In this document: one piece after another, positions 5,391 through 63,747 of the stretch
Layout of the letters: each line of letters begins with the position of its first letter
Numbering within the stretch: the first letter of the stretch is position 1
Assembly: GCA_017999365.1 (NCBI GenBank)
Contig: JAGNLW010000001.1
Span: 130,239-194,238, forward strand
Length of the DNA stretch: 64,000 nucleotides
Origin: Candidatus Aminicenantes bacterium
GTDB taxonomy: Bacteria > Acidobacteriota > Aminicenantia > Aminicenantales > Saccharicenantaceae
Direction of reading: 5' to 3'
The notes under the pieces: generated by a model
Seen by the model: the letters and a program-made list of their open reading frames with translations, nothing else
Databases searched by the model: none
Told to the model about the DNA's origin: nothing
Translations under genes and position numbers: made by a program

Positions 5391-5403
5391 CCAAGGAGAC
5401 GCC

Positions 5404-6162
5404 ATGATCGCATGCCCGTCCTGCGCCTTCGAGAATCCCGACGACGGCAAGTTCTGCACCGGCTGCGGGGCCAAACTGACGCCCCCGCCTCCCCCGCCCG
5501 CGGCTCCGGAAGCGGCCGCCGGGCCCGGCGGACCGTCGCGATTTTGCAACGAGTGCGGGGCCAGGGTCCCGGCGGATTCCAGGTTCTGCACGGCCTGCGG
5601 ACGGACGACCGAGCCCACCTCCCCGGGGGCCGGCCAGGAGGCCGGCGCGGGCGGGCGGGCCGGCGGCGCCGCTTCGGCCTCCGCCGCGGCCTATCTCGCC
5701 GCGCTCGACGAACGCCTGGCCACCGCCGGCTATGAGAAGATCGACGCGCCGGCGGTGCTCGGCCTCGACCGATTCCTCCGCCGCAAGAAGTTCGAGCTGA
5801 TGCAGATCGGTATGGTCACGGCGGTCTGCGGCGTCAAGGTCCTCGACGGGCCGGCGACGCCGTCCTACGTCAAGGATTACAGCAAGGCCGTCTTCGACGC
5901 CGCCGTCGGCAAGAAGGGCTTTCTGGCGCGCAACGCCGTCCAGCAGCTCCTCGTCTATCCCGTCCTGGTCGTCCCTTCGGCCGAGGCGGGCGTGGCCGAG
6001 TTCCTGAGCTCCCATTGGCCGAAGCACTGGATGGCCTTCGAGTTCCCTGTCGTCGCGGCGATCGGGACCGGGGAGCTCCTGCTCCACCGGGGCACGCCGG
6101 TCTGGCAGGCGCTGTCCCACGGGGGGTTCCGCAAGCAGGCCGAGAGCCTGTTCGCGGTCTAG
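5404..6162 (+). CDS. Double zinc-ribbon domain protein (paralogous N-terminus to the upstream gene)
   Basis: Start at ATG 5404 (AAGGAGAC RBS), inside track ORF 5335..6162. Ribbons are CPSCAFENPDDGKFCTGCG and CNECGARVPADSRFCTACG, followed by a Pro-rich linker and a ~170-aa C-terminal domain. Confidence 0.7.
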   Translation: MIACPSCAFENPDDGKFCTGCGAKLTPPPPPPAAPEAAAGPGGPSRFCNECGARVPADSRFCTACGRTTEPTSPGAGQEAGAGGRAGGAASASAAAYLAALDERLATAGYEKIDAPAVLGLDRFLRRKKFELMQIGMVTAVCGVKVLDGPATPSYVKDYSKAVFDAAVGKKGFLARNAVQQLLVYPVLVVPSAEAGVAEFLSSHWPKHWMAFEFPVVAAIGTGELLLHRGTPVWQALSHGGFRKQAESLFAV

Positions 6163-27192: not shown

Positions 27193-27765
27193 GTGATGCG
27201 CAACACCGCCGTTATCACCATCATCGCCCTCGCCGCCGCCCTCGGTCTCACGGCCGGCCCGGCCCTCGCCGCCCAGGAGGAGGGGCACGTCGTCGAGGTC
27301 AAGAGCCTCGTCTCCCGCGAAGCCGTCCGCCCCGGCGAGACCTTCCAGGCCGCCGTCCTCGTCACGGTCCAGGCGGGCTACCACATCAACGACAACGCCC
27401 CCGTCGACGAGTTCATGATCCCGACCGTCCTGACGGTCCTGGAGGCCCCGGACTTCGAGGTCCTCGAGACCTACTATCCCGTCGGCCGCCGGGCCCGTTT
27501 CTCCTACTCCGAGGTCGAACTCGTCGTCTACGAAGGGGAGACGGCCCTCGGCCTCCTGCTCAAGGCCAAGGACGGCATCGCGCCCGGCCCCCGGACCGTC
27601 AAGGTCTCCCTCGGCTACCAGGCCTGCGACGCCATGTCGTGCCTGCCGCCCAAGGAGCTGGCCTTCGAGATCGCCGTCCCCGTCGCGGCCGACGGCGCCG
27701 CGCCCGCCGCCGACGTCAAGCCCGAGGTCTTCAAAAAGCTCCGCTTCAAGTCCCTGAAAAAATGA
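27193..27765 (+). CDS. DsbD N-terminal (alpha) domain-like periplasmic thiol-disulfide protein
   Basis: Signal peptide. YHINDNAP and LGYQACDAMSCLPPKE closely resemble the E. coli DsbD-alpha cysteine pair region (..YQGCADAGFCYPPE..). Start at GTG 27193 or ATG 27196. Confidence 0.65.
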   Translation: MMRNTAVITIIALAAALGLTAGPALAAQEEGHVVEVKSLVSREAVRPGETFQAAVLVTVQAGYHINDNAPVDEFMIPTVLTVLEAPDFEVLETYYPVGRRARFSYSEVELVVYEGETALGLLLKAKDGIAPGPRTVKVSLGYQACDAMSCLPPKELAFEIAVPVAADGAAPAADVKPEVFKKLRFKSLKK

Positions 27766-29180
27766 CGGACGAATCGAGACAAGCCCTCTTCCGCGCCATC
27801 CCGTCCCTCGACGCCCTGCTGTCCTCCGAGGCCGCCGCCCCGCTCCTGGCCGCCCACGGCCGCGAGGCCGTCGTCGCCGCCGGACGGGCCGTCCTCGACG
27901 ACCTGCGCGCCGGGATCGCCGCGAATGCCGCGCCCGACGACCTGTCGCTCCCCGCCCTGGCCGCCCGCGTCGCCGGCCGCCTGGCCTCCCGCCTGGCCCC
28001 CTCCCTCGCCCCCGCCATCAACGCCACCGGCGTCATCATGCACTCCGGCCTCGGCCGGGCCGTGCTCCCGCCCGCCGCGTGCGGAGCCCTCGGCGCCGTC
28101 GCCGCCGGCTACTCGACCCTGGCCCTCGACCTCGACTCCGGCAAGCGCGTCCCCCGCGACCGCCACGTCGAGGGCCTCCTCCGCGATCTCACCGGAGCCG
28201 AAGCAGTCACCGTCGCCAACAACAACGCCGCCGCGACCGTCCTCATCCTCGACACCATGGCCCGCGGCAAAGAGGTCGTCGTCTCGCGCGGCCAGCTCGT
28301 CGAGATCGGCGGCTCCTTCCGCATGCCCGACGTCATGGCCTCAAGCGGCGCCGTCCTGCGCGAGGTCGGCACGACCAACAAGACCCACCTCCGCGACTAC
28401 GAGGCCGCCCTGTCCCCCGCCACCGGGGCCATCCTCCGCGTCCACCACAGCAACTACCGCATCCTCGGCTTCGCCGAGGAGCCCCCCATCGAGGACCTCG
28501 TCGCCCTCGGCCGCTCCCGCGGCGTCCCGGTCATCGACGACCTCGGCAGCGGAGCCCTGGTCGACCTCGCGCGCTACGGCCTGGCCGGCGAGCCCCTGGT
28601 CCGGGCCAGCTTGGCCGCCGGCGCCGACGTCGCCTGCTTCAGCGGCGACAAGCTCATCGGCGGTCCCCAGTGCGGCATCATCGCCGGCCGCACCGAGTGG
28701 ATCCAGCGTATCCGTAAGAATCCTCTGGCCCGGGCCTTCCGCTGCGGCAAGCTGACCCTGGCCGCCCTCGAAGCGACCCTCAAGCTCTTCCTGGACCCCG
28801 ACCGGCTGGCCGAACGCCATCCCATCTACCGCATGTTCGCCCTCACGCCCGGCGAACTCGCCCGCCGGGCCGAAGCCATGGCCGCCTCCCTCCGCGAAGT
28901 CCTGCCGGCCGCCGTCGCGGTCGCCGTCGTCGACGCCGAGTCCCAAGTGGGCAGCGGCGCCGTCCCCGTCGAGACCATGCCCTCGAAGGCCCTGTCCATC
29001 CGCGCCGCCCGCCTCCCCGCCGAGGACCTGGCCCGCCGCCTGCGCCGCGGCGCGCCGCCCGTCTTCGCCCGCGTCCACCGCGACGCCGTTCTCTTCGACC
29101 TGCGCACGGTCCAGCCCGGCCAGGAGGCCGCCCTCCGGGCCGCGCTCGCCGCGATCCTCCAAGATGAAAAAAACAAATAG
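27762..29180 (+). CDS. selA: L-seryl-tRNA(Sec) selenium transferase (selenocysteine synthase)
   Basis: PLP-lysine motif FSGDKLIGGPQCG (SelA FSGDKLLGGPQAG). 472 aa. Start overlaps the upstream stop (ATGA). Confidence 0.9.
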   Translation: MTDESRQALFRAIPSLDALLSSEAAAPLLAAHGREAVVAAGRAVLDDLRAGIAANAAPDDLSLPALAARVAGRLASRLAPSLAPAINATGVIMHSGLGRAVLPPAACGALGAVAAGYSTLALDLDSGKRVPRDRHVEGLLRDLTGAEAVTVANNNAAATVLILDTMARGKEVVVSRGQLVEIGGSFRMPDVMASSGAVLREVGTTNKTHLRDYEAALSPATGAILRVHHSNYRILGFAEEPPIEDLVALGRSRGVPVIDDLGSGALVDLARYGLAGEPLVRASLAAGADVACFSGDKLIGGPQCGIIAGRTEWIQRIRKNPLARAFRCGKLTLAALEATLKLFLDPDRLAERHPIYRMFALTPGELARRAEAMAASLREVLPAAVAVAVVDAESQVGSGAVPVETMPSKALSIRAARLPAEDLARRLRRGAPPVFARVHRDAVLFDLRTVQPGQEAALRAALAAILQDEKNK

Positions 29181-30405
29181 GAACGGCCCCGTTTCTCGGG
29201 CCTTCTTCGAGAGGCGCAAGCGCGTCATGGGGCGGTCCATCGCCCTCGGCCATTGCATCTGCAACCCCAAGGACCCCTGCCCCTGCGACCTCTTCAAACA
29301 GAAGAACGTCTGTCTCTGCGCCGGCGAGCGCGAGGCCGACGCCCCCGACGACGTCGCCCTGACCACTCTCGTCGAGAACGCCGGCTGCGCCTCAAAGATC
29401 GGCCAGGAGGACCTCAAGCGGGCCCTCGCCGGCCTGCCGCGCACCTTCGACCGCCGCGTCCTCGTCTCCTCGGACACCTGCGACGACGCCGGCGTCTACG
29501 CCCTGACCCCGCGCACGGCCCTCGTCCAGTCGGTCGACGTCTTCACCCCCGTCGTCGACGACGCCTACGCCTTCGGCGAGATCGCCGCCGCCAACTCCCT
29601 CAGCGACATCTACGCCATGGGCGGCCGCCCCCTGACGGCCCTGTCCATCGTCGCCTTCCCCATCGAGCGCCTCAGCCCGCGCCTCATGAACCGCATGCTC
29701 CAGGGCGGCGTCGACAAGCTCCGCGAAGCGGGCGTGGCCCTCCTCGGCGGCCACAGCATCAAGGACCGCGAGATCAAGTTCGGTTTCGCCGTGACCGGCG
29801 TCGTCGACCCCCGCCGCATGACCGTGAACAACCGCGCCAAGCCCGGCGACGTTCTCGTCCTGACCAAGCCCCTCGGCACGGGCACGCTGAGCTTCGCCCG
29901 CCAGATCGGCCGGGCCCCGGCCGACGGCCTGGCCGCCGCCGAGCTCTCCATGCGCGCCCTCAACAAGGCCGCCGCCGCCCTCTTACCGGCCTTCCGCGTC
30001 ACCACGGCCACCGACATCACCGGCTTCGGCCTGGCCGGCCACCTCGGCGAGATCGCCGCCCAGAGCCGAGTCGACATCGAGGTCTTCGGCGCCTCCCTCC
30101 CCGTCTTCCCCGGCGTCCTCGAGCTCATCCGCGCCGGGGTCGTCTCGGGCGCCGTCGAGCGCAATCGCGAATACGCCTCGTCCTTCGTCCGGCGCGCCGA
30201 TCTGACCGTCCCCGAGGAGCTCGAGACGCTCCTCTACGACCCCCAGACCTCGGGCGGCCTGCTCGTCGCCGTCCGCCCCTCGCGGGCCGCGGCTTTCCTC
30301 TCCGCCCTCGGCCGCGCCGGCGTCCCGGCCGCCGCCATCGTCGGACGCGTCACCCGCAAGTCCGCCAAGCCCCGCATCGTCCTCCGCGCCGCCGCCCCGC
30401 GCTGA
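29164..30405 (+). CDS. selD: Selenide, water dikinase (selenophosphate synthetase), Cys-type, with Cys-rich N-terminal extension
   Basis: Core ...LTTLVENAGCASKIG... aligns to E. coli SelD ...LTQYSHGAGCGCKI... (Cys rather than Sec at the active-site position). The AIR-synthase-like fold blocks are present. A ~50-aa N-terminal extension with HCICNPKDPCPCDLFKQKNVCLCAGE precedes the core. Alternative start ATG 29227. Confidence 0.9.
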   Translation: MKKTNRNGPVSRAFFERRKRVMGRSIALGHCICNPKDPCPCDLFKQKNVCLCAGEREADAPDDVALTTLVENAGCASKIGQEDLKRALAGLPRTFDRRVLVSSDTCDDAGVYALTPRTALVQSVDVFTPVVDDAYAFGEIAAANSLSDIYAMGGRPLTALSIVAFPIERLSPRLMNRMLQGGVDKLREAGVALLGGHSIKDREIKFGFAVTGVVDPRRMTVNNRAKPGDVLVLTKPLGTGTLSFARQIGRAPADGLAAAELSMRALNKAAAALLPAFRVTTATDITGFGLAGHLGEIAAQSRVDIEVFGASLPVFPGVLELIRAGVVSGAVERNREYASSFVRRADLTVPEELETLLYDPQTSGGLLVAVRPSRAAAFLSALGRAGVPAAAIVGRVTRKSAKPRIVLRAAAPR

Positions 30406-30410
30406 CCGCC

Positions 30411-32342
30411 ATGGCCGAGCTCGACCACGTCATCGTCGGCACGGCCGGGCACATCGACCACGGCAAGAGCGCCCTCGTCCGGGCCCTGACCGGCACCGAC
30501 CCCGACACGCTGCCCGAGGAAAAGGCCCGCGGCATGACCATCGAGCTGGGCTTCGTCTTCCTCGACGACCCGGGCTACCCGAAGCAGATCGTCTTCATCG
30601 ACGTCCCCGGCCACGAGCGCTTCGTCAAGACCATGGCCGCCGGAGCCAGCCACGTCGACGCCGCCCTCCTGGTCGTCGCCGCCGACGAGGGCCTGGCCGT
30701 CCAGACCCGCGAGCATTTCGACATCCTGACCCTCCTCGGCATCGAGCACGGGCTCATCGCCCTGACCAAGAGCGACCTCGTCGACGGGGACCGCGTTGCC
30801 GAGCTCACGGCGTCCGTCCGCGCCTTCGTCCGCGGCTCGTTCCTGGAGAGCGCGCCCATCCTCGCCGTCTCCGCCCTCACCGGCGCCGGCCTCCCGGAGC
30901 TCAAAGCCGCGCTCCAGGCCATCGGCCGCCGCGTCCGCCCCCGGCCCGACAGCGGCGTCTTCCGCATGCCCGTCGACCGCGTCTTCACCATGCACGGCTT
31001 CGGCACGGTCGTCGCCGGCACCGTCCTCTCGGGCACGGTCCGGGCCGGCGACCGCGTCGAGATCTTTCCCGAAGGCCTGAAAAGCCGCGTTCGCGGCGTC
31101 CAAGTCCACGGCTCCAAGGCCGACGTCTCGGGGGTCGGGCGCCGCACGGCCCTCAACCTCCAGGACCTGGCCAAGGAGGATCTCCGCCGCGGCCAGGTCG
31201 CCGCCGCCGAAGGCTCGCTCGTCCCGACGGCGCGCCTCGACGCCCGCCTCGACGTCCTGGCCGACGCCCCCCGCGAGGTCAAGCACCGCGACCGGGTCCG
31301 GCTCCACATCGGGACCGACGAGGTCATGGCCCGGCTCGCCGTCATCGGCGGGCCGTCCGTCGCCCCCGGCGCCTCCTCCCCCGTCCAGCTCGTCCTCGAA
31401 CGGCCGGCCGTGGCCCTGCCCGGCGACCGCTTCGTCATCCGTTCCTTCTCGCCCGTCCTGACCGTCGGCGGAGGCCTCGTCCTCGACGCCGCGCCCGAGA
31501 AACACAAGCGCTTCAGCGGCCGGGTCCTCGAGGGGCTGGGCAAGCTCGGCGGGCCGGCCCGCGAGGCCGTCGACCAGATGTTCGCCCAGGCCGGCGGCAT
31601 CCCCCGGACCGCCTCCGACATCGCCCTCAAGCTCGGCCGGGCCGAAGCCGACGTCGCCGAGGCCGTCGCCGCGCTCGCCGCCGAGGGCGCGCTCGTCGCC
31701 GTCGGCGAGGGCCAGCCCGAGCGCTACCTCCACCGGTCCGTCCGCGACGAGCTGGCCGCCGGGCTCGTCGACGGCCTCAAGGCCTATTTCGCCGCGAATC
31801 CCTACAAGCCGGCCATGCCCTACTCCGATCTCCGCGCCGCTTTTCTCGGCAAAAGCGACGCCGCCGGCCTCAAGCACGTCCTCGACTCCCTCCTCGCCTC
31901 GGGCGCGCTCTTCCGCAAGGACGCCGGCGTCGGCCTCACCGGCCGCGAGGTCGCGGCCGACCCCGTCGAGGCCGAGCGCCGCGCCCGCGTCGCCGGGGCC
32001 TATGCCTCGGCCCGGTTCTCCGCCCCGCTCGAGGACGACGTCCGCCTCTCCCTCAAGCTCAATCCCTCGGCGTTCGAGCCCGTCCTCAACGCCCTGCTCC
32101 GCGACGGCACGCTCGTCCGGCTGGCGCCCAAGGTCGTCTATCACCGCGACACGGTCGAGGCCGCCCGCTTGGCCGTGGCCGGCCTCATCGAGCGGCGCGG
32201 CTCGGTCTCCATCGCCGAGCTCCGCGACCGCCTGGCGCTCTCCCGCAAGTACGCCCAGGCCATCCTGGAATATTTCGACAAGACCGGCTTCACCAAGCGC
32301 GTCGGCGACCGTCACGTCGCGGGCGCGCGCCCCGCCCGCTGA
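30411..32342 (+). CDS. selB: Selenocysteine-specific translation elongation factor
   Basis: GTPase motifs GHIDHGKS, DVPGHERF and TKSD. EF-Tu-like domains II/III are followed by a long C-terminal winged-helix extension (mRNA/SECIS binding). 643 aa. Confidence 0.9.
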   Translation: MAELDHVIVGTAGHIDHGKSALVRALTGTDPDTLPEEKARGMTIELGFVFLDDPGYPKQIVFIDVPGHERFVKTMAAGASHVDAALLVVAADEGLAVQTREHFDILTLLGIEHGLIALTKSDLVDGDRVAELTASVRAFVRGSFLESAPILAVSALTGAGLPELKAALQAIGRRVRPRPDSGVFRMPVDRVFTMHGFGTVVAGTVLSGTVRAGDRVEIFPEGLKSRVRGVQVHGSKADVSGVGRRTALNLQDLAKEDLRRGQVAAAEGSLVPTARLDARLDVLADAPREVKHRDRVRLHIGTDEVMARLAVIGGPSVAPGASSPVQLVLERPAVALPGDRFVIRSFSPVLTVGGGLVLDAAPEKHKRFSGRVLEGLGKLGGPAREAVDQMFAQAGGIPRTASDIALKLGRAEADVAEAVAALAAEGALVAVGEGQPERYLHRSVRDELAAGLVDGLKAYFAANPYKPAMPYSDLRAAFLGKSDAAGLKHVLDSLLASGALFRKDAGVGLTGREVAADPVEAERRARVAGAYASARFSAPLEDDVRLSLKLNPSAFEPVLNALLRDGTLVRLAPKVVYHRDTVEAARLAVAGLIERRGSVSIAELRDRLALSRKYAQAILEYFDKTGFTKRVGDRHVAGARPAR

Positions 32343-53815: not shown

Positions 53816-56800
53816 ATGAAAGCGGAGCCTTCCCGTTACGCCCGGGACCTCCAGCGCCTGCTCGAGGCCTGGGCGGGACCGAAGGGAAAACGGCGGCCGG
53901 GGCCCGGGACGACCGGGAACAGCGCCCTGGAGCTCCTGGAGCGGGTGGAGCGGGACCTCTCCGGGGGGCGGGGTCCATCTCGCGAGGCTGGCCGGGAGTT
54001 CCTGCGGATCACCTCCGATCCGCGCTTCCTCCGCGAGCTCGGCCGCACCGACCTCCAGACACGTTGGGCCGAGGCTTGCTTCGCCCTCATCCAAGCCACG
54101 GGATACGGCATCGGCGATCTCTTCGAGGACCGGGTCCGGGAGACGCCCGGCCGGGTCTTCCTCCAGGACATGGCGGTCTCCCCTCCCCGTCTCTGGACCT
54201 ACGAGGCGGCGGCCCGCCACGTCCGCGAGACCGCGGGGGCCCTCTACGCCCTGGCCGACGCGGAGGGGATCGAGCCGCGTCTGGCCATCTACGCCGAGAA
54301 CCACGCCGAGGGCGCCGTCGCCGACCTGGCCTGTCTTTGCACCGACATCCTCGACACCCCCGTCAATCCCCATTTCAGCCTGGAGAACGTCGTCGGCGTC
54401 TGCGACGCACTGGCCATCAACATGGTCCTGGCCAACGACCGGGAGCGGATCGGTCTTCTCCGCGAGGCCCGCCGGCGCGCGGCCCGGCCGTTCCGCATCC
54501 TGGTCACCGATCCGGGCCTGAACGACGGCGGAGAGGACATCGTCTTCCTGACCGAGTACGCCAAGCAGCTCGGCGCCCGCGACGTCGAGGCCCGCCTGGC
54601 CCGGCGCCGGCGCTTCCGTCTGGACGAAGTGGCCACGGTCATGTTCACCTCGGGTTCGACGGGCCGGCCCAAAGGCGTCTCGTTCTCCATCTACAACCTG
54701 ATCAGCAAGCGCTTCGCCCGGGCCGCCGCCCTGCCGCTGGTCGGCCCCGAAGAGGTCTTCCTGAGCTTCCTGCCGCTCTACCACACCTTCGGCCGGTACC
54801 TCGAGCTCCTGGGCACGATCTATTGGCGAGGAACCTACGTCTTCGCCGGCAATCCCTCGGCCGAGACCCTGTTCAGGCTCATGCCCAAGGTCCGGCCGAC
54901 CGGCTTCATCAGCGTCCCGGTTCGCTGGGCCCAGCTCCACGAGCGCTGCCTCGAGCGCCTCGACGCGGCGCCGGCCGGGGCCGACGCCGGGGCCATCGTC
55001 CGCGAGGTCGTCGGGACGCGCCTGGCCTGGGGGTTGTCGGCCGCCGGCTACCTGGATCCCCGGGTCTTCCGCTTCTTCCAGGCCCACGGCGTCGAGCTCA
55101 TGAGCGGCTTCGGCATGACCGAGGGCACCGGCGGCATGACCATGACCCCGCCCGGCGGCTACGTCGACAACTCCCACGGCCTGCCCCTCCCGGGCCTCAC
55201 GGCCCGGCTCGGGGAGAACGGCGAGCTCCAGGTCTCGGGCCATTACGTCGCCCGCTACCTCGAGGACAAGGGCCCCGGCGACACCGTCCCCGTCCCGACG
55301 GGCGACCCTGAGCGCGACCACTGGTTCGCGACCGGCGACGTCTTCGAGCGCCAGGCCAACGGCTACTACCAGATCGTCGACCGCATCAAGGACATCTACA
55401 AGAACAACCGCGGCCAGACCGTGGCCCCGCGCAAGGTCGAGGACAAGTTCGTCGGCGTGCCGGGCATCAAGCGGACCTTCCTCGTCGGCGACGGCCGGCC
55501 CTACAACGTCCTGTTCATCGTCCCGGACGCGGCCGACCGGGTCCTGGCCGGCGGGCTGGCCCGGGAGAGCGACCGGGAGAACCTCCGCGAGTATTTCCGG
55601 CGCATCGTCACGGCCGCCAACGAGGGCCTGGCCCCGTACGAGAGGGTCGTCAACTTCGAGGTCCTCGGGCGGGACTTCGATCCCGAGGCCGGCGAGGTGA
55701 CGGCCAAGGGCTCCTACAACCGCAAGCGCATCGAGGCCGCCTTCGCCGGGGCCATCGACGACCTCTACCGACGCCGCGCCGTCGACCTTCGCGGCCAGGG
55801 CCTGACCGTCCGTCTGCCGCTCTGGTTCTTCCGCGACCTGGGCATCCTCGAGGACGAGATCGTCCGCGACCGCGACGGCCTGCGGGACCTCAACAGGGGC
55901 CTGCGCCTGCCCCTGCGGCGCGGCTCGGACGGGCGGACCTGGCTCGTCGGCGACCTCGAGTACGAGATCGAGGGCGGCCTCCTCGACCTCGGGCTGTTCG
56001 CTCGCCAGCCCGTCCTCTGGGTCGGCAACCCCTCGCTGGCCGCCTTCGCTCCCTGCAAGGAGGGCTGGGACCTGCCCCTCGAGCCGGCCACCGGCTGGGT
56101 GTCCCTGCCGCGGCGCCGGGCCCGGACCTACACGGAGGCCGAGACGCCGCCTCCGGCCAAGCTCGGCGACGCCCGCCTCGGCCGCCTCCACGTCCTGCTG
56201 GCCAAGCTCCTGTTCTCGCCCGAGGACGTCCCGGACGCCGTCCTGGCCGAGGTCGAGCGCGTCTTCTACGAATCGCCCCTGCGGACCGAGGAGCTCGTCC
56301 GGGCCCGCCTGCGGGCCATGGCCTGGCACCCGAGCCCGCGGCTGCGCTGCTGGGCCTACCGCATCCTTCTCATCCACGACCCGGACATCGACTACGGCCA
56401 GGTCATGCCGGCCTTCGTCAGTTCGGGCCTGCCCTTTCTCGACCGGGAGAGCATCGACGAGATCGCCTCGGCCCGTCTCGGACGAGGCCGGCTGGACGCC
56501 TTCCGGGTCCGCCTGCGGGCCTACCGCGAGACCATGCCCTGGCCGGTCACCGCGCCCTACCGGCGCCAGTTCGAGCGCATCTTCCGCCTGCTCGTCGACC
56601 TGGCCGGGCGCGAGCCCTCCTTCTTCAGTTCCGTGCGGGCCGAGCTGGCCAGCTGGGTCCTGCACCGGGCCGACCCCGAACTGGCCCGGACGGCCGAGCG
56701 CCACCTCGACCGCATGGTGGCCCGGTTCGGCCGGAACGCCGCCGCCGGCACGCGCGCCGCGTCCGAACGCAGGCCGCCGCGCCCGATCTGCGACGACAGC

Positions 56801-58474
56801 CTGACGGCCGCCGAGGCCCGCCGGGTCCGGGCCGTCCTGGCCCTGCCCTCGTTCCTGCGCGACTCGGTCCGGCTGGCCTCCGGCGTCGAGGACTTCGAGG
56901 CCGGCCAGATCGCCGCCGACGGCCTGTGGGTCTCGCGCATCTACAGCGCGCCGCGCCGTTCGACCTATCGGGTCAGCGTCAACACCGCCGCCGGGCGCCA
57001 CTACGACCTCAAGCTCGTCCTGCCCGAGGGGCCGCGCGACGGGGCCGAGCGCGAGACCCGGCTGTGGTCGGCCGTGCTCTCGGACCAGCCCGGCGGGCCG
57101 CGCGTCCTGCCGCCGCTCGGGGCGACCGACGAGCGGACGGGCGCCGTGACCTGGCGCCACCTCGGCGACCTGACCGTCTGGGAGAAGATCCGCGAGTTCG
57201 CCGGACGGCGGGCCGTGGACGGGCCGCTGCCCGCGCCTTCGGTCTGGCGCAAGCTCTACGTCGAAGCCATGTCGGCCCTCTTCGGGGCCTGGCAGACGAG
57301 CGGCCGGCGCATCCTGCCGGGCCGTATCTCGCCGGTCAACGTCGTCGTGCCCGACCTCGAGTTCCGGGACGACACCTTCCTGGCCTCGATCGACGGCTGG
57401 CGTCCCTCTTCGGGCCCGCTGTCGCTCGTCCGCCCCATGGTCGACGGCTTCTACCGCCGGCCGGCGGCCAACTACCCCTGGCTCAAGGACCACCTCGACC
57501 TCGACTGGATCTTCGACGCCGCCTACGACGCCCTGGGCCGGGAGCGGGCCGCGGCCTTCTTCGACGCCCTCCAGCCCGAACTCGACCGCCGGCCGCTGCC
57601 CTCGCTGGCGGGGCAGGACCTGGCCGTCCGCCTGCGCCGGTACCGGGCCGAGTTCGCCCGGACCTACGTCTTCCCCATGCCGCCGTTGAGCGCGGTCGAG
57701 GCCTACCGCGAATGGCGGCAGGGCAACCCGCTGGCCCCGTCGCGGGACCGGGAGCGCAAGGTCCTCGACCTCTACCGGCGCTACTCCCTGGAGCGTTTCC
57801 CGGAGATCGTCCGCTACTACCTCTACCGTCACACCTATTTCGCCGGGCGGAGCGAGCGCATCGAAGCCCTCTTCGACCGCCTCTTGGCGCGGCTGGGCAC
57901 ATCCCTGGACGAGCCGGCCGTGCAGCGGACGGAGCTTTCGGACCTGCAGTCGGCCCTGCGCGACGAGCTCGACCGCCTCGTCTTCAGCCGTATGGTCTTC
58001 CCGCGCCTCGACCCGGACAGCCGTTTGGACGTCAGGACCAAGGGCGAAGAAGGCGAACGGCGGGTCGTCGTGCGGTCCTTCCTGCTCGACCGGGCCGGGC
58101 GGACCTACACCTTCAACGAGACCCTCGACCCGGCCGAGATCGGCCAGGCCTACCGGCTGTTCTTCAAGGAGAACTACCCCAAGATCGTCTCCCAACAGGA
58201 CCGACACTTCGTCCTCAAGGACGGGCAGGAGCGCATCGTCGGGGGGCTGTGCTACCGGATGTTGTCGAACCGGGTGGCCTGGATCGACGTCATCGCCGTG
58301 ACCTCGAACCTCAAGTCATCGGGACTGGGCGGGGCGGCCCTGGACGACTTCTGCGCCCGCATGGCCAGCCAGGGCGTGCCCCTGGTCATGACCCACCTCT
58401 ATCTGCCGGGGTTCTTCCTGAGGCACGGCTTCCGCCTGGACAAGCGCTGGGGCGCGCTGGTCAAGACGCTTTGA
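53816..58474 (+). CDS. Giant multidomain protein: N-terminal AMP-binding (ANL) adenylating domain, ~900-aa central region, C-terminal GNAT acetyltransferase domain
   Basis: GGGGGAGGGA RBS. AMP-binding motif MFTSGSTGRPKGV and later ANL blocks (GFGMTEGTG..., ...WFATGD...). The C-terminus has the GNAT beta-alpha-beta pattern ...VGGLCYRM...WIDVIAVTSNLKSSGLGGAALDDFC. 1552 aa. Confidence 0.75.
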   Translation: MKAEPSRYARDLQRLLEAWAGPKGKRRPGPGTTGNSALELLERVERDLSGGRGPSREAGREFLRITSDPRFLRELGRTDLQTRWAEACFALIQATGYGIGDLFEDRVRETPGRVFLQDMAVSPPRLWTYEAAARHVRETAGALYALADAEGIEPRLAIYAENHAEGAVADLACLCTDILDTPVNPHFSLENVVGVCDALAINMVLANDRERIGLLREARRRAARPFRILVTDPGLNDGGEDIVFLTEYAKQLGARDVEARLARRRRFRLDEVATVMFTSGSTGRPKGVSFSIYNLISKRFARAAALPLVGPEEVFLSFLPLYHTFGRYLELLGTIYWRGTYVFAGNPSAETLFRLMPKVRPTGFISVPVRWAQLHERCLERLDAAPAGADAGAIVREVVGTRLAWGLSAAGYLDPRVFRFFQAHGVELMSGFGMTEGTGGMTMTPPGGYVDNSHGLPLPGLTARLGENGELQVSGHYVARYLEDKGPGDTVPVPTGDPERDHWFATGDVFERQANGYYQIVDRIKDIYKNNRGQTVAPRKVEDKFVGVPGIKRTFLVGDGRPYNVLFIVPDAADRVLAGGLARESDRENLREYFRRIVTAANEGLAPYERVVNFEVLGRDFDPEAGEVTAKGSYNRKRIEAAFAGAIDDLYRRRAVDLRGQGLTVRLPLWFFRDLGILEDEIVRDRDGLRDLNRGLRLPLRRGSDGRTWLVGDLEYEIEGGLLDLGLFARQPVLWVGNPSLAAFAPCKEGWDLPLEPATGWVSLPRRRARTYTEAETPPPAKLGDARLGRLHVLLAKLLFSPEDVPDAVLAEVERVFYESPLRTEELVRARLRAMAWHPSPRLRCWAYRILLIHDPDIDYGQVMPAFVSSGLPFLDRESIDEIASARLGRGRLDAFRVRLRAYRETMPWPVTAPYRRQFERIFRLLVDLAGREPSFFSSVRAELASWVLHRADPELARTAERHLDRMVARFGRNAAAGTRAASERRPPRPICDDSLTAAEARRVRAVLALPSFLRDSVRLASGVEDFEAGQIAADGLWVSRIYSAPRRSTYRVSVNTAAGRHYDLKLVLPEGPRDGAERETRLWSAVLSDQPGGPRVLPPLGATDERTGAVTWRHLGDLTVWEKIREFAGRRAVDGPLPAPSVWRKLYVEAMSALFGAWQTSGRRILPGRISPVNVVVPDLEFRDDTFLASIDGWRPSSGPLSLVRPMVDGFYRRPAANYPWLKDHLDLDWIFDAAYDALGRERAAAFFDALQPELDRRPLPSLAGQDLAVRLRRYRAEFARTYVFPMPPLSAVEAYREWRQGNPLAPSRDRERKVLDLYRRYSLERFPEIVRYYLYRHTYFAGRSERIEALFDRLLARLGTSLDEPAVQRTELSDLQSALRDELDRLVFSRMVFPRLDPDSRLDVRTKGEEGERRVVVRSFLLDRAGRTYTFNETLDPAEIGQAYRLFFKENYPKIVSQQDRHFVLKDGQERIVGGLCYRMLSNRVAWIDVIAVTSNLKSSGLGGAALDDFCARMASQGVPLVMTHLYLPGFFLRHGFRLDKRWGALVKTL

Positions 58475-59405
58475 CGCGCAAATCGACGGAGACTTCCTTC
58501 TTGCCCAGGAACTCGTAGCCGACCGCGCCGAACTTGCACGACGAGACGCACTTCAGGCAGCGGACGCAATCGGGAGAGTTGGCCGATTCGTAGATGCTGA
58601 TCCCGACGGGGCACTCCTTGGTGCACTTGTCGCACAGGGTGCACTTGTCGGGGTCGACGGCCATGCGGAAAAGGCTGGCCTTGTTGAACAGGCCCCAGAA
58701 GGCGCCGAGCGGGCAGACCGTGCGGCAGAAGGGGCGGCGGCTGAGGACGAACCAGCCCAGGAACAGGACGAGCAGGGCCAGCTTCCAGTAATACATGAAG
58801 CCGATGAGGGGGCGCAGGTCGGCCTTGATGAGCATGAGCGGGATGCCGGCCTCGAGCGTCCCGGCCGGGCAGACCCATTTGCAGAACCAGGTCTGGCCGT
58901 AGCCGAACTGATCGACGACGAGCAGCGGCAGGGCCACGACCGTGGTGGCCAGGACGACGTAGCGGAAGTAGGTCAGGAAGCGCGGCACCTTGAGCTTGGG
59001 CGAAGGGATCTTGTGGACGAGCTCCTGGAAGAAGCCGAACGGGCAGACCCAGCCGCAGGGCATGCGGCCCACGGCGCTGCCGACGGCGGCCAGGAATCCG
59101 GCGACATAGAGGCCGAACTTCTTCTGGGCGATCGACAGGTTGAAACGCAGGCCGGCGAAGAAGGTCTGCATGGCGCCGACGGGACAGGCCCCCATGGCCG
59201 AGGGGCAGGAGTAGCAGTTGAGGCCGGGGACGCAGACACCCTTGACCGCGCCCTGGAAGATGCGGCCCTGGAACCACGACGGGATCCAGGCGTTGAGGCC
59301 GAGGGCGAAGAAGGCCTGGTACCAGGGGCGGCGGTCCCGGGGCTTGCGGGCCGCGGGCTTACGGGCCGGGACGGTCTTCCGGACGGCGCCCATGGTCGTC
59401 CTCAC
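58461..59405 (-). CDS. Membrane polyferredoxin (NapH/MauN/CcoG-like 4Fe-4S binding protein)
   Basis: Three transmembrane-type CxxCP motifs (PCGWVCPFG, FCKWVCPAG, FCRTVCPLG) plus two ferredoxin CxxCxxC motifs (CTLCDKCTKECP, CVRCLKCVSSC). Confidence 0.75.
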   Translation of the reverse strand: MRTTMGAVRKTVPARKPAARKPRDRRPWYQAFFALGLNAWIPSWFQGRIFQGAVKGVCVPGLNCYSCPSAMGACPVGAMQTFFAGLRFNLSIAQKKFGLYVAGFLAAVGSAVGRMPCGWVCPFGFFQELVHKIPSPKLKVPRFLTYFRYVVLATTVVALPLLVVDQFGYGQTWFCKWVCPAGTLEAGIPLMLIKADLRPLIGFMYYWKLALLVLFLGWFVLSRRPFCRTVCPLGAFWGLFNKASLFRMAVDPDKCTLCDKCTKECPVGISIYESANSPDCVRCLKCVSSCKFGAVGYEFLGKKEVSVDLRVKAS

Positions 59406-59536
59406 CCGATCCCGATGCAGTCGAGGCAGACCGTGACGGCCTTCTCGAGGACGGTCCGGTACTCGCCGAGCAGGAGACCGGCGGTCATGACGGCCAGGGA
59501 CAGGACCAGGAGGACCCAGGGCAGCCGGCGCTTCAT
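59402..59536 (-). CDS. Small (44-aa) membrane protein ending in a CLDC motif
   Basis: MKRRLPWVLLVLSLAVMTAGLLLGEYRTVLEKAVTVCLDCIGIG. Located between the thioredoxin and polyferredoxin genes, with overlapping or abutting stops and starts. Coordinates are taken from the ORF-track frame. Confidence 0.45.
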   Translation of the reverse strand: MKRRLPWVLLVLSLAVMTAGLLLGEYRTVLEKAVTVCLDCIGIG

Positions 59537-60171
59537 TTCACTCCCCCGCCGACGAGAGCGGCGACGGCCTTGTCGAGCGCGGCCTCCAGCTCGTCGGTGG
59601 CCCCGACGTGGGCATGGGTGACGGTGCCCGTCGCATTGAAGACATAGACGACCGGGATCTCCTGGACGCCGTAGGCCTTCTTCATATCCTTGGCCGTCGC
59701 GGCCACGCCCGCGGCGGCGGGAGCCGTGGGCGCGTCGGCCAGCATGGGATAGGTGATCTTGAGCTTGTTGTAGAAGGGCTTGACGACCTTGCCTCCGGCC
59801 TCGTCGAGGGCGATGCCCAGGACGACCAGGCCGCCCTCGGTCCGGTCCGCGGCCGGCCCATAGGTCTCGCTGAGCTTCTGCATGTGGGGCATGGCCTTGC
59901 GGCAGGGCACGCACCAGGTGGCCCAGAAATCGACCAGCACGGCCGCCGGGTGGGTCTTGACGGTCTTGGTCTCGCCGGCCACGGTCTCGGTCACGGTGAG
60001 GGTCAGCCGGCCGTCTTCCACGGCGACGGCATAGTCCTTGCCGTCGACGTTCTTGAGCGAGAACGGCACGAGCTTGGCCCCCGGCTTGAGCACGGCGAAG
60101 GCCGGCAGGACGAGGAGCAGGGCCAGGAGCAGGATCGGGACCGTCAGGGCGAAACCGCGGCGCGTCTTCAT
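59533..60171 (-). CDS. Periplasmic thioredoxin-fold protein (TlpA/ResA-like), WCxxC
   Basis: Start ATG 60171 (signal MKTRRGFALTVPILLLALLLVLPAFA). VLVDFWATWCVPCRKAMP is the thioredoxin active site. Confidence 0.8.
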   Translation of the reverse strand: MKTRRGFALTVPILLLALLLVLPAFAVLKPGAKLVPFSLKNVDGKDYAVAVEDGRLTLTVTETVAGETKTVKTHPAAVLVDFWATWCVPCRKAMPHMQKLSETYGPAADRTEGGLVVLGIALDEAGGKVVKPFYNKLKITYPMLADAPTAPAAAGVAATAKDMKKAYGVQEIPVVYVFNATGTVTHAHVGATDELEAALDKAVAALVGGGVK

Positions 60172-60224: not shown

Positions 60225-60791
60225 CTAGAATCTGACGACGAAGCCGAGGCCGGCCGAGAGGCCGCCGATCTTGGCCTCGAGGGGGTCCTCGGCGTCGCCG
60301 GCGGTCAGGGTGCAGGCCCGGTAGCCGGCGTGGACGTCCAGGCCGAACGACCGGCCCATCAAGAGGACGAGCCCCGCCTGGCCCAGCGCGCCGAGGCCGC
60401 TTTCGCTGGCCGCGCCGAGCGCGTTCCTTTCCTTGAACAGGAAGTAGGCGGCCGCGGCGCCGAGATAGGGACGGACGCCCTTGCGGCCGAATTGGAGGCG
60501 CAGGCCGGCGAAGAGCGGCGTGATCGTGACCTTGGTCGTCTCCTCGGATTCCGTCGTCAGGCCCCGCTTGGAGAACAGCTCGACGCCGGCCCAGGCCCGC
60601 AGCGGCCCGGCCACCGGCACCGCGAGGTCGAGGCCGAAAGCCGGCCCGCCGCCGTAGACGTCGCGGAAGACGGCGTCGGACGGGGTGAAGTAACCGCCCT
60701 TGATCGTGAGCGCGGTCTCGGCCGCTCGGGCCCCGGCCGCTGTCAGGGCCAGGGCCAAAAGCGCGGCCGCCGCCTTCGTCGCGTGTCTCAT
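60225..60791 (-). CDS. Outer-membrane beta-barrel protein (OmpW/porin-family-like)
   Basis: Signal peptide. Alternating hydrophobic strands. Ends ...GLGFVVRF with a terminal Phe. Confidence 0.75.
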   Translation of the reverse strand: MRHATKAAAALLALALTAAGARAAETALTIKGGYFTPSDAVFRDVYGGGPAFGLDLAVPVAGPLRAWAGVELFSKRGLTTESEETTKVTITPLFAGLRLQFGRKGVRPYLGAAAAYFLFKERNALGAASESGLGALGQAGLVLLMGRSFGLDVHAGYRACTLTAGDAEDPLEAKIGGLSAGLGFVVRF

Positions 60792-60810: not shown

Positions 60811-63747
60811 CTAGTTGACGACGAGCGTGACGGAGTCCCTGACCTCGAGGCTGCCCGAGGTGGCCTCGACGGTGATCTCGTAAGTGCCGGCCGGCGTGCC
60901 GGTATCGCCGCCGCCCCCCCCGCCGCCCGCGCTGCAGCCCGCGGCGGCGACGATGAGGACGGCCAGAAGCCCGGCCGCGGCCAGGCGCGCGGCGAGGCGC
61001 GGGAACCCCGGCCTCGTCGCGGTCCGGACGGCCAGGAGGGCCAGGAGCGCGGCCAGGGCCAGCGGCGGGAGGAGCCCTCCCGGCGGCGGTAAGGCGGCCG
61101 GTCGTGCCGCGGTCCCCGCCCCCGAGCTCTTGCGGGCCGTCGTGGCGACGGTCATCGTGGCCGTGGCCCCGCCACTGCCGGGCGTCACGCTCGCCGGCGA
61201 GAAAGAGGCCGAAGCGCCCCGCGGCAGGCCGACGGCGCGCAGGGCGACCGAGGCGTCGAACGATCCGTAGCGAGGCGCCAGTTGGACCGTGAAGGTCCCG
61301 CTCGAGCCCGCGCTGAGGGTGGTCGAGGCGGGCGTCGCCTCGACCGTGAAATCGGTCACGGTGAACGCCGCCGGGGCCGTCAGGCCGCCGGCCGGGGCCG
61401 GGTTGACGACCACGATCTCGAATTCGCCGCCCGCGGCGATGTCCGCGGCCGGGATGGCCGCCCGCAGCTCCGTCGCGCCGACGAAGGTCGTCGGCCGATC
61501 CAAGCCGTTCCACCGGACGGAGGAGTTCGAGACGAAGCCCGTCCCCAGGACGGTCAGGGTGAAGTCGGCGCCGCCCCCGTTGGCCCGCGTCGGCGAAATC
61601 GAGGCCAACGTGGGCGCGGGATTCTCGACCGCGAACGTGAGGCCGTTAGACACGCCGCCGCCCGGCCCGCGGACGACGACGCTGACGAGCCCGCCCAGGG
61701 CCAAGTCGGAGGCGGGGATGGCCGCCTCGAGCCGGCCGGCGTCGACGAAGGCCGTCGGCCGGTCGTTCCCGTTCCAGGTCACCACGGCGCCCGGGACGAA
61801 GCCCGAGCCGATGACGGCCAGAGTGAAGGGCCCGCCGTTGACGGACGCGTTCGAGGGCGAGAGGGAGGCCGCCGTGAAGGCGTAGACCATGGGCCCGCTC
61901 AGCACCCCGGCCAGCGGGGCCCGGGCCGAGCCGCCCTGGCCGTCCTCGAATTGGAAGAAGTAACTGTGCTCGCCGGCGGCCAGCGCAGAGGTCGACCAGC
62001 GGTAGCGCCCGTCGGAGGCCGAGTAGGTCGTCGCGTGGGGGGTCCCGTCGACATAGACGTTCCGCACGGCCGGGGCGTCGCCGTCCTCGTCCGTGAACTG
62101 GACGGAGAACATGTAGGTGTCGGAGGGCGTGCCGCTCGACGGCGAGACCCGGGCGTAGAGGAGCTCCGGCGGGTGGTTGTAGTCCGGCCCGGCATAGGTG
62201 TAGTCGACCCAGGCGTAGACCTGTTCGCCGCCGTCGGCCGTCTTGGGCACCTGGGCCGAGGCGACCTCTGTGGCCGGGTCGGTGGTCAGGTCGACGATCT
62301 TGAAGGCCTTCAGGGTGGCCGGATCGCCGGCCGTGCCGTCGCGCATACCCAGATGATAGCGCCGGGCGCCGGCCCCCGCCGTCAGGATGTCGGTGAAGTC
62401 GAGGACGAACGTGCCGTCGACGGCCGTCGCCGAGCCGTCGAAGGCGAAGGCCCCGCCCTGGCCCCAGAGGGCGGTCGGAGGCCAGGTCGTCGAGGGAGTG
62501 GTGGCCGAGGTCGTCGATGTGCCCAGGGACAGCCGCATCTGGTCCCGCTTGGCGTGCTTGACCGTGAACTCGCCGGTCATCAGGGGCGTGTAGGAGTCCC
62601 GGACGGTCAGCAGGAAGACCATGTCGTTGAAGAAGGCCGGTTCGCGCGGCGTCGTCGGGGCGCCGGCGACGAGAGGGACCAGGCGCAGGGCGTCGTAGGC
62701 CAGCCAGGTGAAGCCGCCGTCGCGCCAGGAGCCGCCCCAGGAGTTGGCGATGCGCAGGGCGCCCTTCTCGCCGGTGTCGATGGCCCCGTTGCCGTTGATG
62801 TCGGTCCAGATCGCGTCGTTGTAGCCGACGACGGTCATGCCGTGCGAGCCTTCGGCGCCGTTGACCCAATAGCCGACGGCCTCGCCCACCGCGCCGTCGT
62901 CGGCGGCGGTCGAGGGATCGTCGAGGGCGGCCTTGAGCTGCCAGGACGAGACGTAGGTCCCGAAGACCATGACGTAACCGTTCGTCAGGAGCTGCTTGAG
63001 GAGGTCGAGCCCCGCGTCTTCGCTGACGTCCCGCAGGTACTGGACCGGGTCGATCCGGACGGCGAGGGCCCGCCGCCAGGCGGCCGGGTCCAGGCACCAG
63101 GCCTTGAAGTTCGTGTCGTAGGGGAAGTCGGCCCAAGTCACCGCCCCGTGGCGTTCGAGGAGGTCGTAGTTCTCGCCGAAGTACGTCCCCTCGTCCTTGC
63201 CGTCGTTGAGCATGTTGTAGGACCACTTCGGCGAGTACTTGTTCGTGTTGTCGGCCGGATCGCGGATGTCCATGTCGCGCTGGAACGCGGCCATGTAGGA
63301 GAGCTGGTAATAGGTGCTCGAGAACGAGGCGCACGAGCCGAGCGGGTTCTGGCTGCGGATAGGCGGGAAGAATTTGAGCAGGCTGTTGTCGACGGAGACC
63401 GGCAGGTCGCCGGCCGCGACGAGGGACGAGGCGGAGGCCAGGACGGCGGCCTCCCCCGGCCGGGCGGAGACGAGCTCGCCGCCGACCCGGTCGACGGCCC
63501 GGACCTCGAGAGGCGGCCGTCCCTGGGCGGAACGGGCGTCGTTGATCCGCTCGAGCCCCAGCCAGTTGACCCGGACCCCGGCGACGCGCGGGTGGGTCTC
63601 GACGAATTCCCGCAGGCGGGCCTCGTCCTCCCGGAGCAGGCCGGTCCGATGGCCCTCGTCCGGCGCGATATCCTGGGCGGGAGAGACCGCCAGGAGGAGG
63701 GCGCCGAGGAGCGCCGCGAGCAGAACCTTCCGGGAAGTCAGGGGCAT
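60811..63747 (-). CDS. Large secreted papain-like (C1 family) cysteine peptidase with Ig-like/IPT repeats and C-terminal hydrophobic sorting-like segments
   Basis: Signal peptide. NPLGSCASFSSTYYQ (Cys nucleophile region) and NSWGGSWRDGGFTWLAY (C1 Asn/Trp region). Repeated SPSxAS/NGG Ig-like modules. The C-terminus has ...GGLLPPLALAALLALLAVRTATR... then ...AAGLLAVLIVAAAGCS.... Confidence 0.7.
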   Translation of the reverse strand: MPLTSRKVLLAALLGALLLAVSPAQDIAPDEGHRTGLLREDEARLREFVETHPRVAGVRVNWLGLERINDARSAQGRPPLEVRAVDRVGGELVSARPGEAAVLASASSLVAAGDLPVSVDNSLLKFFPPIRSQNPLGSCASFSSTYYQLSYMAAFQRDMDIRDPADNTNKYSPKWSYNMLNDGKDEGTYFGENYDLLERHGAVTWADFPYDTNFKAWCLDPAAWRRALAVRIDPVQYLRDVSEDAGLDLLKQLLTNGYVMVFGTYVSSWQLKAALDDPSTAADDGAVGEAVGYWVNGAEGSHGMTVVGYNDAIWTDINGNGAIDTGEKGALRIANSWGGSWRDGGFTWLAYDALRLVPLVAGAPTTPREPAFFNDMVFLLTVRDSYTPLMTGEFTVKHAKRDQMRLSLGTSTTSATTPSTTWPPTALWGQGGAFAFDGSATAVDGTFVLDFTDILTAGAGARRYHLGMRDGTAGDPATLKAFKIVDLTTDPATEVASAQVPKTADGGEQVYAWVDYTYAGPDYNHPPELLYARVSPSSGTPSDTYMFSVQFTDEDGDAPAVRNVYVDGTPHATTYSASDGRYRWSTSALAAGEHSYFFQFEDGQGGSARAPLAGVLSGPMVYAFTAASLSPSNASVNGGPFTLAVIGSGFVPGAVVTWNGNDRPTAFVDAGRLEAAIPASDLALGGLVSVVVRGPGGGVSNGLTFAVENPAPTLASISPTRANGGGADFTLTVLGTGFVSNSSVRWNGLDRPTTFVGATELRAAIPAADIAAGGEFEIVVVNPAPAGGLTAPAAFTVTDFTVEATPASTTLSAGSSGTFTVQLAPRYGSFDASVALRAVGLPRGASASFSPASVTPGSGGATATMTVATTARKSSGAGTAARPAALPPPGGLLPPLALAALLALLAVRTATRPGFPRLAARLAAAGLLAVLIVAAAGCSAGGGGGGGDTGTPAGTYEITVEATSGSLEVRDSVTLVVN

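Follow-up and report, generated by a model that had tools for sequence, protein, structure and literature searches.

How might a bacterium pass reducing equivalents to a secreted thioredoxin by a route other than DsbD? To our knowledge, nearly all thiol reduction in the bacterial envelope is ascribed to the DsbD/CcdA/ScsB family, for which cytoplasmic thioredoxin is the source of electrons. The question is raised by a locus in a 64,000-nt stretch of DNA from Candidatus Aminicenantes bacterium (contig JAGNLW010000001.1), referred to below as the window. At positions 58461-60171, open reading frame (ORF) analysis gives three co-oriented minus-strand ORFs, for a secreted thioredoxin, a 44-residue CxxC peptide and a NapH-like membrane polyferredoxin. 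Comparative sequence data suggest that this trio is probably a single redox machine in the membrane, by which reducing equivalents travel from the cytoplasm to the extracytoplasmic thioredoxin, the job of the DsbD/CcdA transmembrane domain in other systems. We also put forward, more tentatively, a broader proposal: the peptide and the polyferredoxin may constitute a previously uncharacterised class of iron-sulfur (Fe-S) transmembrane disulfide reductase that is independent of DsbD/CcdA. In such a class the peptide would be the outward redox arm, the acceptors (TlpA-like thioredoxins, DsbD-alpha domains and rhodaneses) would be interchangeable, and the carriers would be widespread among anaerobes, including abundant human-gut Clostridia.

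The three genes and their products

The features of the locus are as follows.

60171..59533, minus strand: TlpA/ResA/DsbE-like secreted thioredoxin, 212 aa (ORF and Pfam)
59536..59402, minus strand: CD1871A-family CxxC peptide, 44 aa (NCBIfam NF040920)
59393..58461, minus strand: NapH-like membrane polyferredoxin (Pfam Fer4_5); the ATG start, with GAGGA ahead of it, gives 310 aa, and an alternative GTG start at 59405 gives 314 aa
59234..59181, minus strand: polyferredoxin N-terminal four-cysteine motif, C-x5-C-x2-C-x6-CP, Cys54/60/63/70
59057..59040, minus strand: polyferredoxin CX3CP motif 1, CGWVCP, Cys113/117
58883..58866, minus strand: polyferredoxin CX3CP motif 2, CKWVCP, Cys171/175
58727..58710, minus strand: polyferredoxin CX3CP motif 3, CRTVCP, Cys223/227
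58643..58608 and 58568..58536, minus strand: two polyferredoxin ferredoxin [4Fe-4S] motifs, CxxCxxCxxxC

The original prediction of three co-oriented genes that overlap or abut was correct in coordinates and gene content. The thioredoxin stop codon and the peptide start codon overlap as ATGA. Between the peptide and polyferredoxin genes there is a gap of 8 nt, or a GTGA overlap if the GTG start at 59405 is used. By this layout, the three genes are translationally coupled.

The first gene had been described as encoding a secreted thioredoxin with a WCVPC active site, and this holds. The protein has a hydrophobic, signal-like segment at residues 3-36 by hydropathy, and it matches the Pfam families Thioredoxin (44 bits), AhpC-TSA (43.3) and Redoxin (40.9), all above cut-off. 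The active site, encoded at 59916..59902, comprises Cys87 and Cys90; a longer ORF is possible from an alternative upstream ATG at 60222. The scores fall short of the NCBIfam equivalog cut-offs for ResA (57.7 bits against 170), StoA (55.6 against 210), TlpA (40.6 against 230) and DsbE (38.1 against 123), and the protein is best classed as a generic member of the TlpA/ResA/DsbE type with no named orthologue. The nearest solved chains in a sequence-based search are 3kcm, 3gl3 (DsbE), StoA and ResA. A peroxiredoxin, suggested by the AhpC-TSA match, was rejected on account of the WCxPC motif and of best matches that are of the thioredoxin/TlpA type.

The second gene product matches NF040920 over the whole model (positions 1-38 of 38; 53.5 bits, cut-off 32, E 1.5e-14). 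It has a KRR-rich N-terminus, one transmembrane (TM) helix (hydrophobic residues 3-26) and the tail VLEKAVTVCLDCIGIG, which contains Cys37 and Cys40. The predicted length of 44 residues and the single helix stand. The protein does not, as had been stated, end in CLDC: the tail is CLDCIGIG, and CLDC (59428..59417) stops four residues before the end. A homologue search with the peptide matched only close Aminicenantes relatives, near-identical versions of which carry the NCBI name “CD1871A family CXXC motif-containing protein”. We found no papers in a literature search for “CD1871A”.

The third gene product matches Fer4_5 (PF12801) in two stretches with 64.4 bits (cut-off 22), and also Fer4 and Fer4_7. 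It is NapH-like and has two ferredoxin motifs, as first described, but the membrane motifs given then as CxxCP are C-x3-C-P, and a fourth motif, the N-terminal one with four cysteines, had been missed. Each CX3CP motif stands after a hydrophobic helix. The three CX3CP motifs and the peptide CxxC together supply eight cysteines, and the N-terminal motif four more. All 18 cysteines of the polyferredoxin are invariant in 78 homologues, and distant fusions show little or no variation at these positions. The family is large, with 3818 matches at E<=1e-10 among the scored candidates, and with 384, 2008 and 6343 cluster representatives at 50% identity for E<=1e-30, 1e-10 and 1e-3, respectively.

Is this protein a NapH? 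NapH models reach only residues 200-298 (TIGR02163, 64.7 bits, cut-off 213; NF007013, 56.4 bits, cut-off 234), and NosR models likewise align only there; the scores are about a quarter of the cut-offs. No nap, mau, nos or cco genes were found among the 26 window ORFs scanned, nor among the neighbours with Pfam families. We therefore rejected a NapH orthologue, given the score far below cut-off and the lack of nap gene context; by these sequence comparisons the protein belongs to the NapH-like superfamily and is not a NapH. We found no solved structure for its membrane part, the matches being limited to generic ferredoxin domains. The AlphaFold2 (AF2) model is reasonably confident overall and has a predicted local distance difference test score (pLDDT) of 77.9 and a predicted template modelling score (pTM) of 0.75, with low confidence at residues 45-67.

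Conservation, fusions and membrane sidedness

We compared 80 loci, the best 80 of 342 matching stretches from a polyferredoxin scan of one genome per species, each with a neighbourhood of 6 kb on either side. Most are from Aminicenantes, with Actinomycetota and Saccharicenans in addition. In all 80, a CD1871A-type ORF lies directly upstream of the polyferredoxin gene and ends at its start, and the last eight residues of the peptide, C-L-[DSEN]-C-[IV]-G-[IL]-x, are essentially fixed and C-terminal. The peptide also adjoins the polyferredoxin upstream in every distant locus inspected, and the same C-terminal tail is present in the four checked (L081, L082, L084 and L086, from Clostridia and one unassigned metagenome contig). 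A thioredoxin-fold gene is adjacent in 56 of the 80 loci. The remaining 24 have no thioredoxin within 6 kb, even by a broad thioredoxin-domain hidden Markov model, and we rejected a divergent thioredoxin in these loci for this reason. Hence, the predicted three-gene order is conserved without exception for the peptide and the polyferredoxin but not for the thioredoxin. It follows that the conserved core is the peptide and the polyferredoxin, and that thioredoxin reduction cannot be the sole output of this pair.

Several of the loci (L001, L009, L011, L016 and others) are titled “uncultured Eubacteriales bacterium”. Their polyferredoxins are 78-95% identical to those of Aminicenantes metagenome-assembled genomes (MAGs), with the same synteny, and the titles are probably wrong taxonomic labels.

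For six distant proteins that we looked up (nine loci), thioredoxin is adjacent or fused in every case. They are from Paraclostridium bifermentans, where the order is Redoxin lipoprotein, 45-aa peptide (tail ...CLECIGIG), polyferredoxin; from Clostridium estertheticum (44-aa peptide with tail ...CLECVGIG, polyferredoxin, Redoxin lipoprotein); from Clostridium sp. (Redoxin, 54-aa ORF, polyferredoxin); and from a Coriobacteriales MAG (49-aa ORF, polyferredoxin, Redoxin), the other two being fusions. The trio is thus conserved or fused across three bacterial phyla, including Aminicenantes, Clostridia and Coriobacteriales. The three-gene arrangement is beyond chance: it recurs in 80 genomic loci, in three phyla, and as gene fusions.

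In the 24 loci that lack a thioredoxin, other co-directional genes adjoin the core. In four Saccharicenans loci (L076, L077, L079 and L080; about 4840-5860), a gene for a secreted tandem rhodanese abuts or overlaps the peptide gene, in the usual position of the thioredoxin. A gene for a cytoplasmic flavin adenine dinucleotide (FAD) oxidoreductase (Pyr_redox_2 and FAD-depend_C) lies directly upstream in four Actinomycetota loci (L066, L068, L070 and L078), and a class-V, cysteine-desulfurase-like aminotransferase lies directly downstream in three further loci (L060, L069 and L074; two annotated as Actinomycetes, one an unclassified bacterial MAG). The oxidoreductase and the aminotransferase are candidate donor or cluster-assembly partners. 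In six thioredoxin-less Aminicenantes loci, the peptide-polyferredoxin pair has MscL upstream and an outer-membrane barrel gene downstream. Inner donors and outer acceptors appear to be exchangeable around the peptide-polyferredoxin core, with an outward partner that is either a thioredoxin or a rhodanese.

Gene fusions tie the polyferredoxin to the thioredoxin more closely. Of the 150 best polyferredoxin cluster representatives, 46 far exceed 310 aa in length, and 39 of these (39 of the top 150) have a C-terminal Redoxin, AhpC-TSA or Thioredoxin domain. Exactly one predicted TM helix separates the last ferredoxin motif from the CxxC in 36 of the 39 long representatives with a downstream CxxC. 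Lysines and arginines flanking this helix total 182 in the preceding 15 residues versus 51 in the following 15, which, by the positive-inside rule, would place the ferredoxin domain of the fusions in the cytoplasm and the thioredoxin domain outside. When the window thioredoxin is aligned to one such fusion (28% identity over 152 residues), its signal segment falls on the fusion TM helix. One of the fusions, P0271, consists of a polyferredoxin, a TM helix, a thioredoxin domain and then a DsbD_N domain with a YQSCNESSCF motif. In a fusion of another kind, P0247, a GltD-like NAD(P)H flavoprotein (Fer4_20 and Pyr_redox_2) runs directly into the N-terminus of the polyferredoxin, and no TM helix intervenes. 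This suggests that the polyferredoxin N-terminus is cytoplasmic, and it identifies a plausible donor.

What of the peptide? It was never seen fused to the polyferredoxin N-terminus, as would be expected if the peptide C-terminus is outside and the polyferredoxin N-terminus inside. In a Clostridia bacterium (L082 4229-4993 and L083 3459-4223), a 254-aa protein with five TM helices ends in the CD1871A module (…INICNECIGLG), and its gene sits 8 nt upstream of a polyferredoxin-TM-thioredoxin fusion. Loop charges of the five-TM protein place its CxxC tail outside by the positive-inside rule. The thioredoxin partners in Gram-positive species carry lipoboxes, which indicates that they are extracytoplasmic. 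Charge bias and three fusion types therefore agree on a predicted sidedness in which the ferredoxin domain is cytoplasmic and the thioredoxin and the peptide CxxC tail face outward.

A topology check of the CX3CP protein by hydropathy and charge gave four helices with the N-terminus inside. Three of the helices are strong (residues 92-111, 139-160 and 200-218) and the first, at about 18-41, is weaker; the N-terminus has nine lysines or arginines in 26 residues. With the N-terminus and the ferredoxin domain both inside, CX3CP motifs 1 and 3 are predicted to lie at the inner face, and the N-terminal four-cysteine motif and CX3CP motif 2 at the outer face, by the peptide CxxC. The CX3CP motifs of NapH reportedly lie at the inner face.

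Could the thioredoxin instead be served by a canonical CcdA or DsbD encoded elsewhere, with the peptide and polyferredoxin carrying out metal reduction (as CcoG does) or quinol oxidation (as NapH does) and merely sharing the operon? The polyferredoxin is in the Fer4_5 superfamily with NapH, NosR and CcoG, and 24 of the 80 loci have no adjacent thioredoxin. CcoG is a cupric reductase according to the literature. The original prediction that the trio stands without DsbD or CcdA was borne out for the multi-TM ORFs of the 64-kb window: PF02683 (DsbD/CcdA) was found neither there nor in the three trio proteins. It was also absent from 27 of the 33 multi-TM ORFs in the 80 loci, the other six being left out as same-size counterparts in sister loci, and from the called genes of nine further loci (L081-L089). 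These scans covered the window and the neighbourhood of the module in relatives, and our literature search on DsbD/CcdA in Aminicenantes found nothing useful. Nonetheless, we regard separate roles as unlikely. The polyferredoxin is covalently joined to TlpA-like domains in 39 of 150 representatives, with a predicted topology that puts the two domains on opposite sides of the membrane, and such an arrangement would make little sense if the two were not functionally coupled in a direct way. The scores for the NapH models are far under their cut-offs, and there are no nap, nos or cco genes near. Moreover, a thioredoxin is beyond the reach of menaquinol, which is too oxidising a donor, and quinones are absent from many of the Clostridia with the module.

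A candidate electron route

How could the trio reduce a thioredoxin on the far side of the membrane? In the mechanism that we propose, a low-potential cytoplasmic donor, either a ferredoxin or an NAD(P)H flavoprotein, would reduce both [4Fe-4S] clusters in the ferredoxin domain at the C-terminus. From these clusters electrons would enter the four-helix membrane domain, going first to one or both inner CX3CP pairs and then to the outer cysteines. From there they would reach the CxxC tail of the 44-residue peptide, anchored beside the polyferredoxin with its N-terminus inside and its C-terminus outside. The peptide dithiol would then reduce the WCVPC disulfide of the secreted TlpA-like thioredoxin, which in turn would reduce envelope substrates. 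Candidate substrates are a DsbD-alpha-like protein encoded at 27193-27765 and the products of the two genes upstream of the trio. The direction of flow, the donor, the substrates, and the division of the cysteines between cluster binding and dithiol/disulfide cycling are all parts of this scheme that we infer.

Ferredoxin:thioredoxin reductase (FTR) and HdrB-type Fe-S disulfide reductases offer a chemical analogy, since in these enzymes one-electron Fe-S carriers drive two-electron disulfide reduction. They differ from the trio in being soluble and unrelated in sequence; our homology search gave generic ferredoxin domains only. For the cysteines outside the ferredoxin domain, we favour an FTR-like step from a cluster to an adjacent disulfide because thioredoxin reduction chemically requires a final dithiol. 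Redox-active disulfides have been judged likelier than clusters for the CX3CP motifs of NosR and RdhC, NosR holding at most 8 Fe (PMC5928378).

The same relay could in principle run backwards. The thioredoxin would then take electrons from envelope thiols and send them into the cell by way of the peptide and the polyferredoxin, in a DsbB-like oxidative pathway. Thiol-disulfide relays are reversible in principle, and the sequence holds nothing that fixes the direction. However, the hosts are anaerobes and the thioredoxin partner is TlpA/ResA-like, not DsbA-like. The inner end of the relay is a low-potential 2x[4Fe-4S] ferredoxin domain that is sometimes fused to an NAD(P)H flavoprotein, and fusion P0271 has the DsbD gamma-alpha order that is typical of reductive flow. 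Inward flow is thus very unlikely.

Which proteins might receive the electrons after the thioredoxin? The following feature of the window is one candidate.

27193..27765, plus strand: stand-alone secreted DsbD-alpha-like protein, 190 aa, with a signal peptide and a C-x5-C in QACDAMSCLPP (Pfam DsbD_N, 35.5 bits, cut-off 25)

The gene overlaps the start of selA by 4 nt and is followed by a SelD-like AIRS gene and selB, which makes up a full selenocysteine operon at 27193-32342 (+). A periplasmic DsbD-alpha domain is unusual at the head of a selenocysteine-incorporation operon. The SelD-like protein (29164-30405, +) has AIRS and AIRS_C from residue 107, after an N-terminal extension of ~100 residues that contains ...GHCICNPKDPCP.... 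The original prediction had suggested that the trio might serve the DsbD-alpha-like protein. Fusion P0271 supports this, since it carries a DsbD_N domain whose YQSCNESSCF motif matches QACDAMSCLPP of the window protein. The window protein is a possible acceptor downstream of the thioredoxin, a link that we draw from the fusion.

The selenocysteine operon also bears on a different purpose for the module, namely extracytoplasmic sulfur or selenium chemistry in place of general protein-disulfide reduction, in which it would reduce persulfides, polysulfide, sulfane sulfur or selenium on rhodanese- or thioredoxin-fold carriers. Consistent with such a purpose, the full operon is led by a DsbD_N protein, a secreted tandem rhodanese replaces the thioredoxin in the four Saccharicenans loci, and the cysteine-desulfurase-like aminotransferase is directly downstream in three loci. 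In the published view, NapH-like proteins are modular units for electron transfer across membranes (PMC8238504); exchangeable donors and acceptors around the core fit this view, which leaves room for a role in sulfur or selenium chemistry. Nevertheless, the partner in most loci and fusions is of the WCxPC/CGPC TlpA type, a classical protein-disulfide reductant, the sel operon is 31 kb distant, and no catalytic subunit of a sulfur reductase was found nearby in the window. We consider it improbable that this chemistry is the purpose of the module. A dedicated role in c-type cytochrome maturation is unlikely in general, since both the module and its fused forms occur commonly among Clostridia, which mostly lack c-type cytochromes.

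The comparative genomics substantially supports the original interpretation, that an Fe-S protein rather than DsbD-beta feeds the thioredoxin: the conservation of the trio, the 39 fusions among 150 representatives and the architecture of P0271 all point to it, although the thioredoxin is not universal. Several points weigh against transfer of reducing equivalents from the cytoplasm to the thioredoxin by the trio, or against details of the route. First, 24 of the 80 loci lack a thioredoxin within 6 kb. Second, the search for DsbD/CcdA covered the window and the loci with 6 kb on either side, and the trio system may coexist with DsbD/CcdA. Third, the placing of the N-terminal motif and CX3CP motif 2 at the outer face relies on hydropathy and the positive-inside rule, and the first TM helix is weakly hydrophobic. 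Fourth, the residues of low confidence in the AF2 model, 45-67, contain three of the four cysteines of the N-terminal motif (Cys54, Cys60 and Cys63). Finally, Fe-S clusters at the outer face would pose an assembly problem.

Neighbouring genes, known systems and significance

Three further genes lie around the trio in the window.

60791..60225, minus strand: small outer-membrane beta-barrel protein, 188 aa, with a signal peptide (OMP_b-brl 21.7 bits, below the cut-off of 28.7)
63747..60811, minus strand: large secreted or anchored protein, 978 aa, first gene of a five-gene block (NCBIfam choice-of-anchor Z, 178.8 bits)
53816-58474, plus strand: 1552-aa protein with an AMP-binding acyl-ligase at the N-terminus, a GNAT domain at the C-terminus and a long uncharacterised region between them

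The genes for the 978-aa protein, the barrel, the thioredoxin, the peptide and the polyferredoxin are co-directional on the minus strand, with gaps of 19, <=53, -4 and 8 nt, and no terminator-like sites were found on the minus strand within this block. The barrel and the large protein were originally placed downstream of the trio; both are upstream on the coding strand. The barrel gene, directly upstream of the thioredoxin gene, is probably in the same operon. A homologue of the barrel in L040 scores 35.9 bits for OMP_b-brl. The barrel is adjacent to the module in 45 of the 80 loci (upstream in 38, downstream in 7). In L055-L058, L061, L062 and L072, the peptide-polyferredoxin pair keeps the barrel without a thioredoxin, and the barrel is now downstream of the polyferredoxin.

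The label “cysteine protease”, given originally to the large protein, is weak: the protein scores 17.5 bits (E 0.0046) for Peptidase_C1, where the gathering cut-off is 20.7, and a sequence-based search of solved structures gave no relative. A papain-like resemblance is visible by eye at the level of motifs (GSCASFS, SHGMTVVGY and NSWG). The protein also has a lipo-invert C-terminal anchoring domain (75.1 bits), Pfam TIG matches, and a lipobox-like AAAGC near the C-terminus, after hydrophobic segments. Its gene is upstream of the module in 17 of the 80 loci, all close relatives, where it heads the five-gene block. The gene for the 1552-aa protein runs towards the polyferredoxin gene, with a 14-nt overlap at the 3' end of the latter; this convergence is kept in 17 loci.

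How does the trio compare with known systems? The proposed job, supply of reducing equivalents from the cytoplasm to thioredoxins of the TlpA/ResA/DsbE type, is that of DsbD, CcdA and ScsB, and the order in P0271 of membrane domain, thioredoxin and DsbD_N mirrors the beta-gamma-alpha order of DsbD. In contrast, the trio has no sequence or fold relationship to these proteins, and PF02683 is absent from it. Instead, its membrane component is a NapH-like Fe-S protein whose 2x[4Fe-4S] domain is predicted to be cytoplasmic, and a separate CxxC peptide of 44 residues would be needed as well. The donor is probably a ferredoxin or flavoprotein, not cytoplasmic thioredoxin.

Like NapH, NosR and RdhC (PceC), the polyferredoxin has the four-helix Fer4_5 module, with CX3CP after TM2 and TM4 (PMC5928378), and like the first two of these it has a C-terminal ferredoxin domain with two clusters. 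It differs from them in its third CX3CP, its extra N-terminal four-cysteine motif, its obligatory CD1871A partner and its lack of a flavin mononucleotide-binding domain. Its outward partner is also different, a thioredoxin or rhodanese rather than NapG/NapC, NosZ or a dehalogenase.

A “novel operon” of 4Fe-4S, CxxC and TlpA genes has been described in gut species, six Clostridia and one further Firmicute, including Blautia wexlerae, Anaerostipes hadrus and Phascolarctobacterium faecium (bioRxiv 10.1101/2025.11.06.686285). Compared by components and order, it has the same three components in the same order, with the CxxC gene central, as the Clostridial loci described here. That preprint treats the operon as a metagenomic biomarker, a gut-microbiome marker of immunotherapy toxicity, and comments in general terms on “redox homeostasis”; it gives no topology, fusions or mechanism (10.1101/2025.11.06.686285). 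The component families are thus known, and the operon has been noticed before. A DsbD-independent Fe-S route of thiol reduction with a micro-peptide is not described in the literature that we searched.

If the proposed route is correct, it would represent a second, unrelated solution to thiol reduction in the envelope, one in which extracytoplasmic thioredoxins would be connected directly with the ferredoxin or NAD(P)H pool of anaerobes. The route would give a function to the CD1871A peptides and to a large, unannotated polyferredoxin family (384 clusters at 50% identity, E<=1e-30), and a role to the long-unexplained CX3CP motifs of NapH, NosR and RdhC. The operon recently flagged as a gut-microbiome marker of immunotherapy toxicity, so far with no mechanistic account, has the same make-up.

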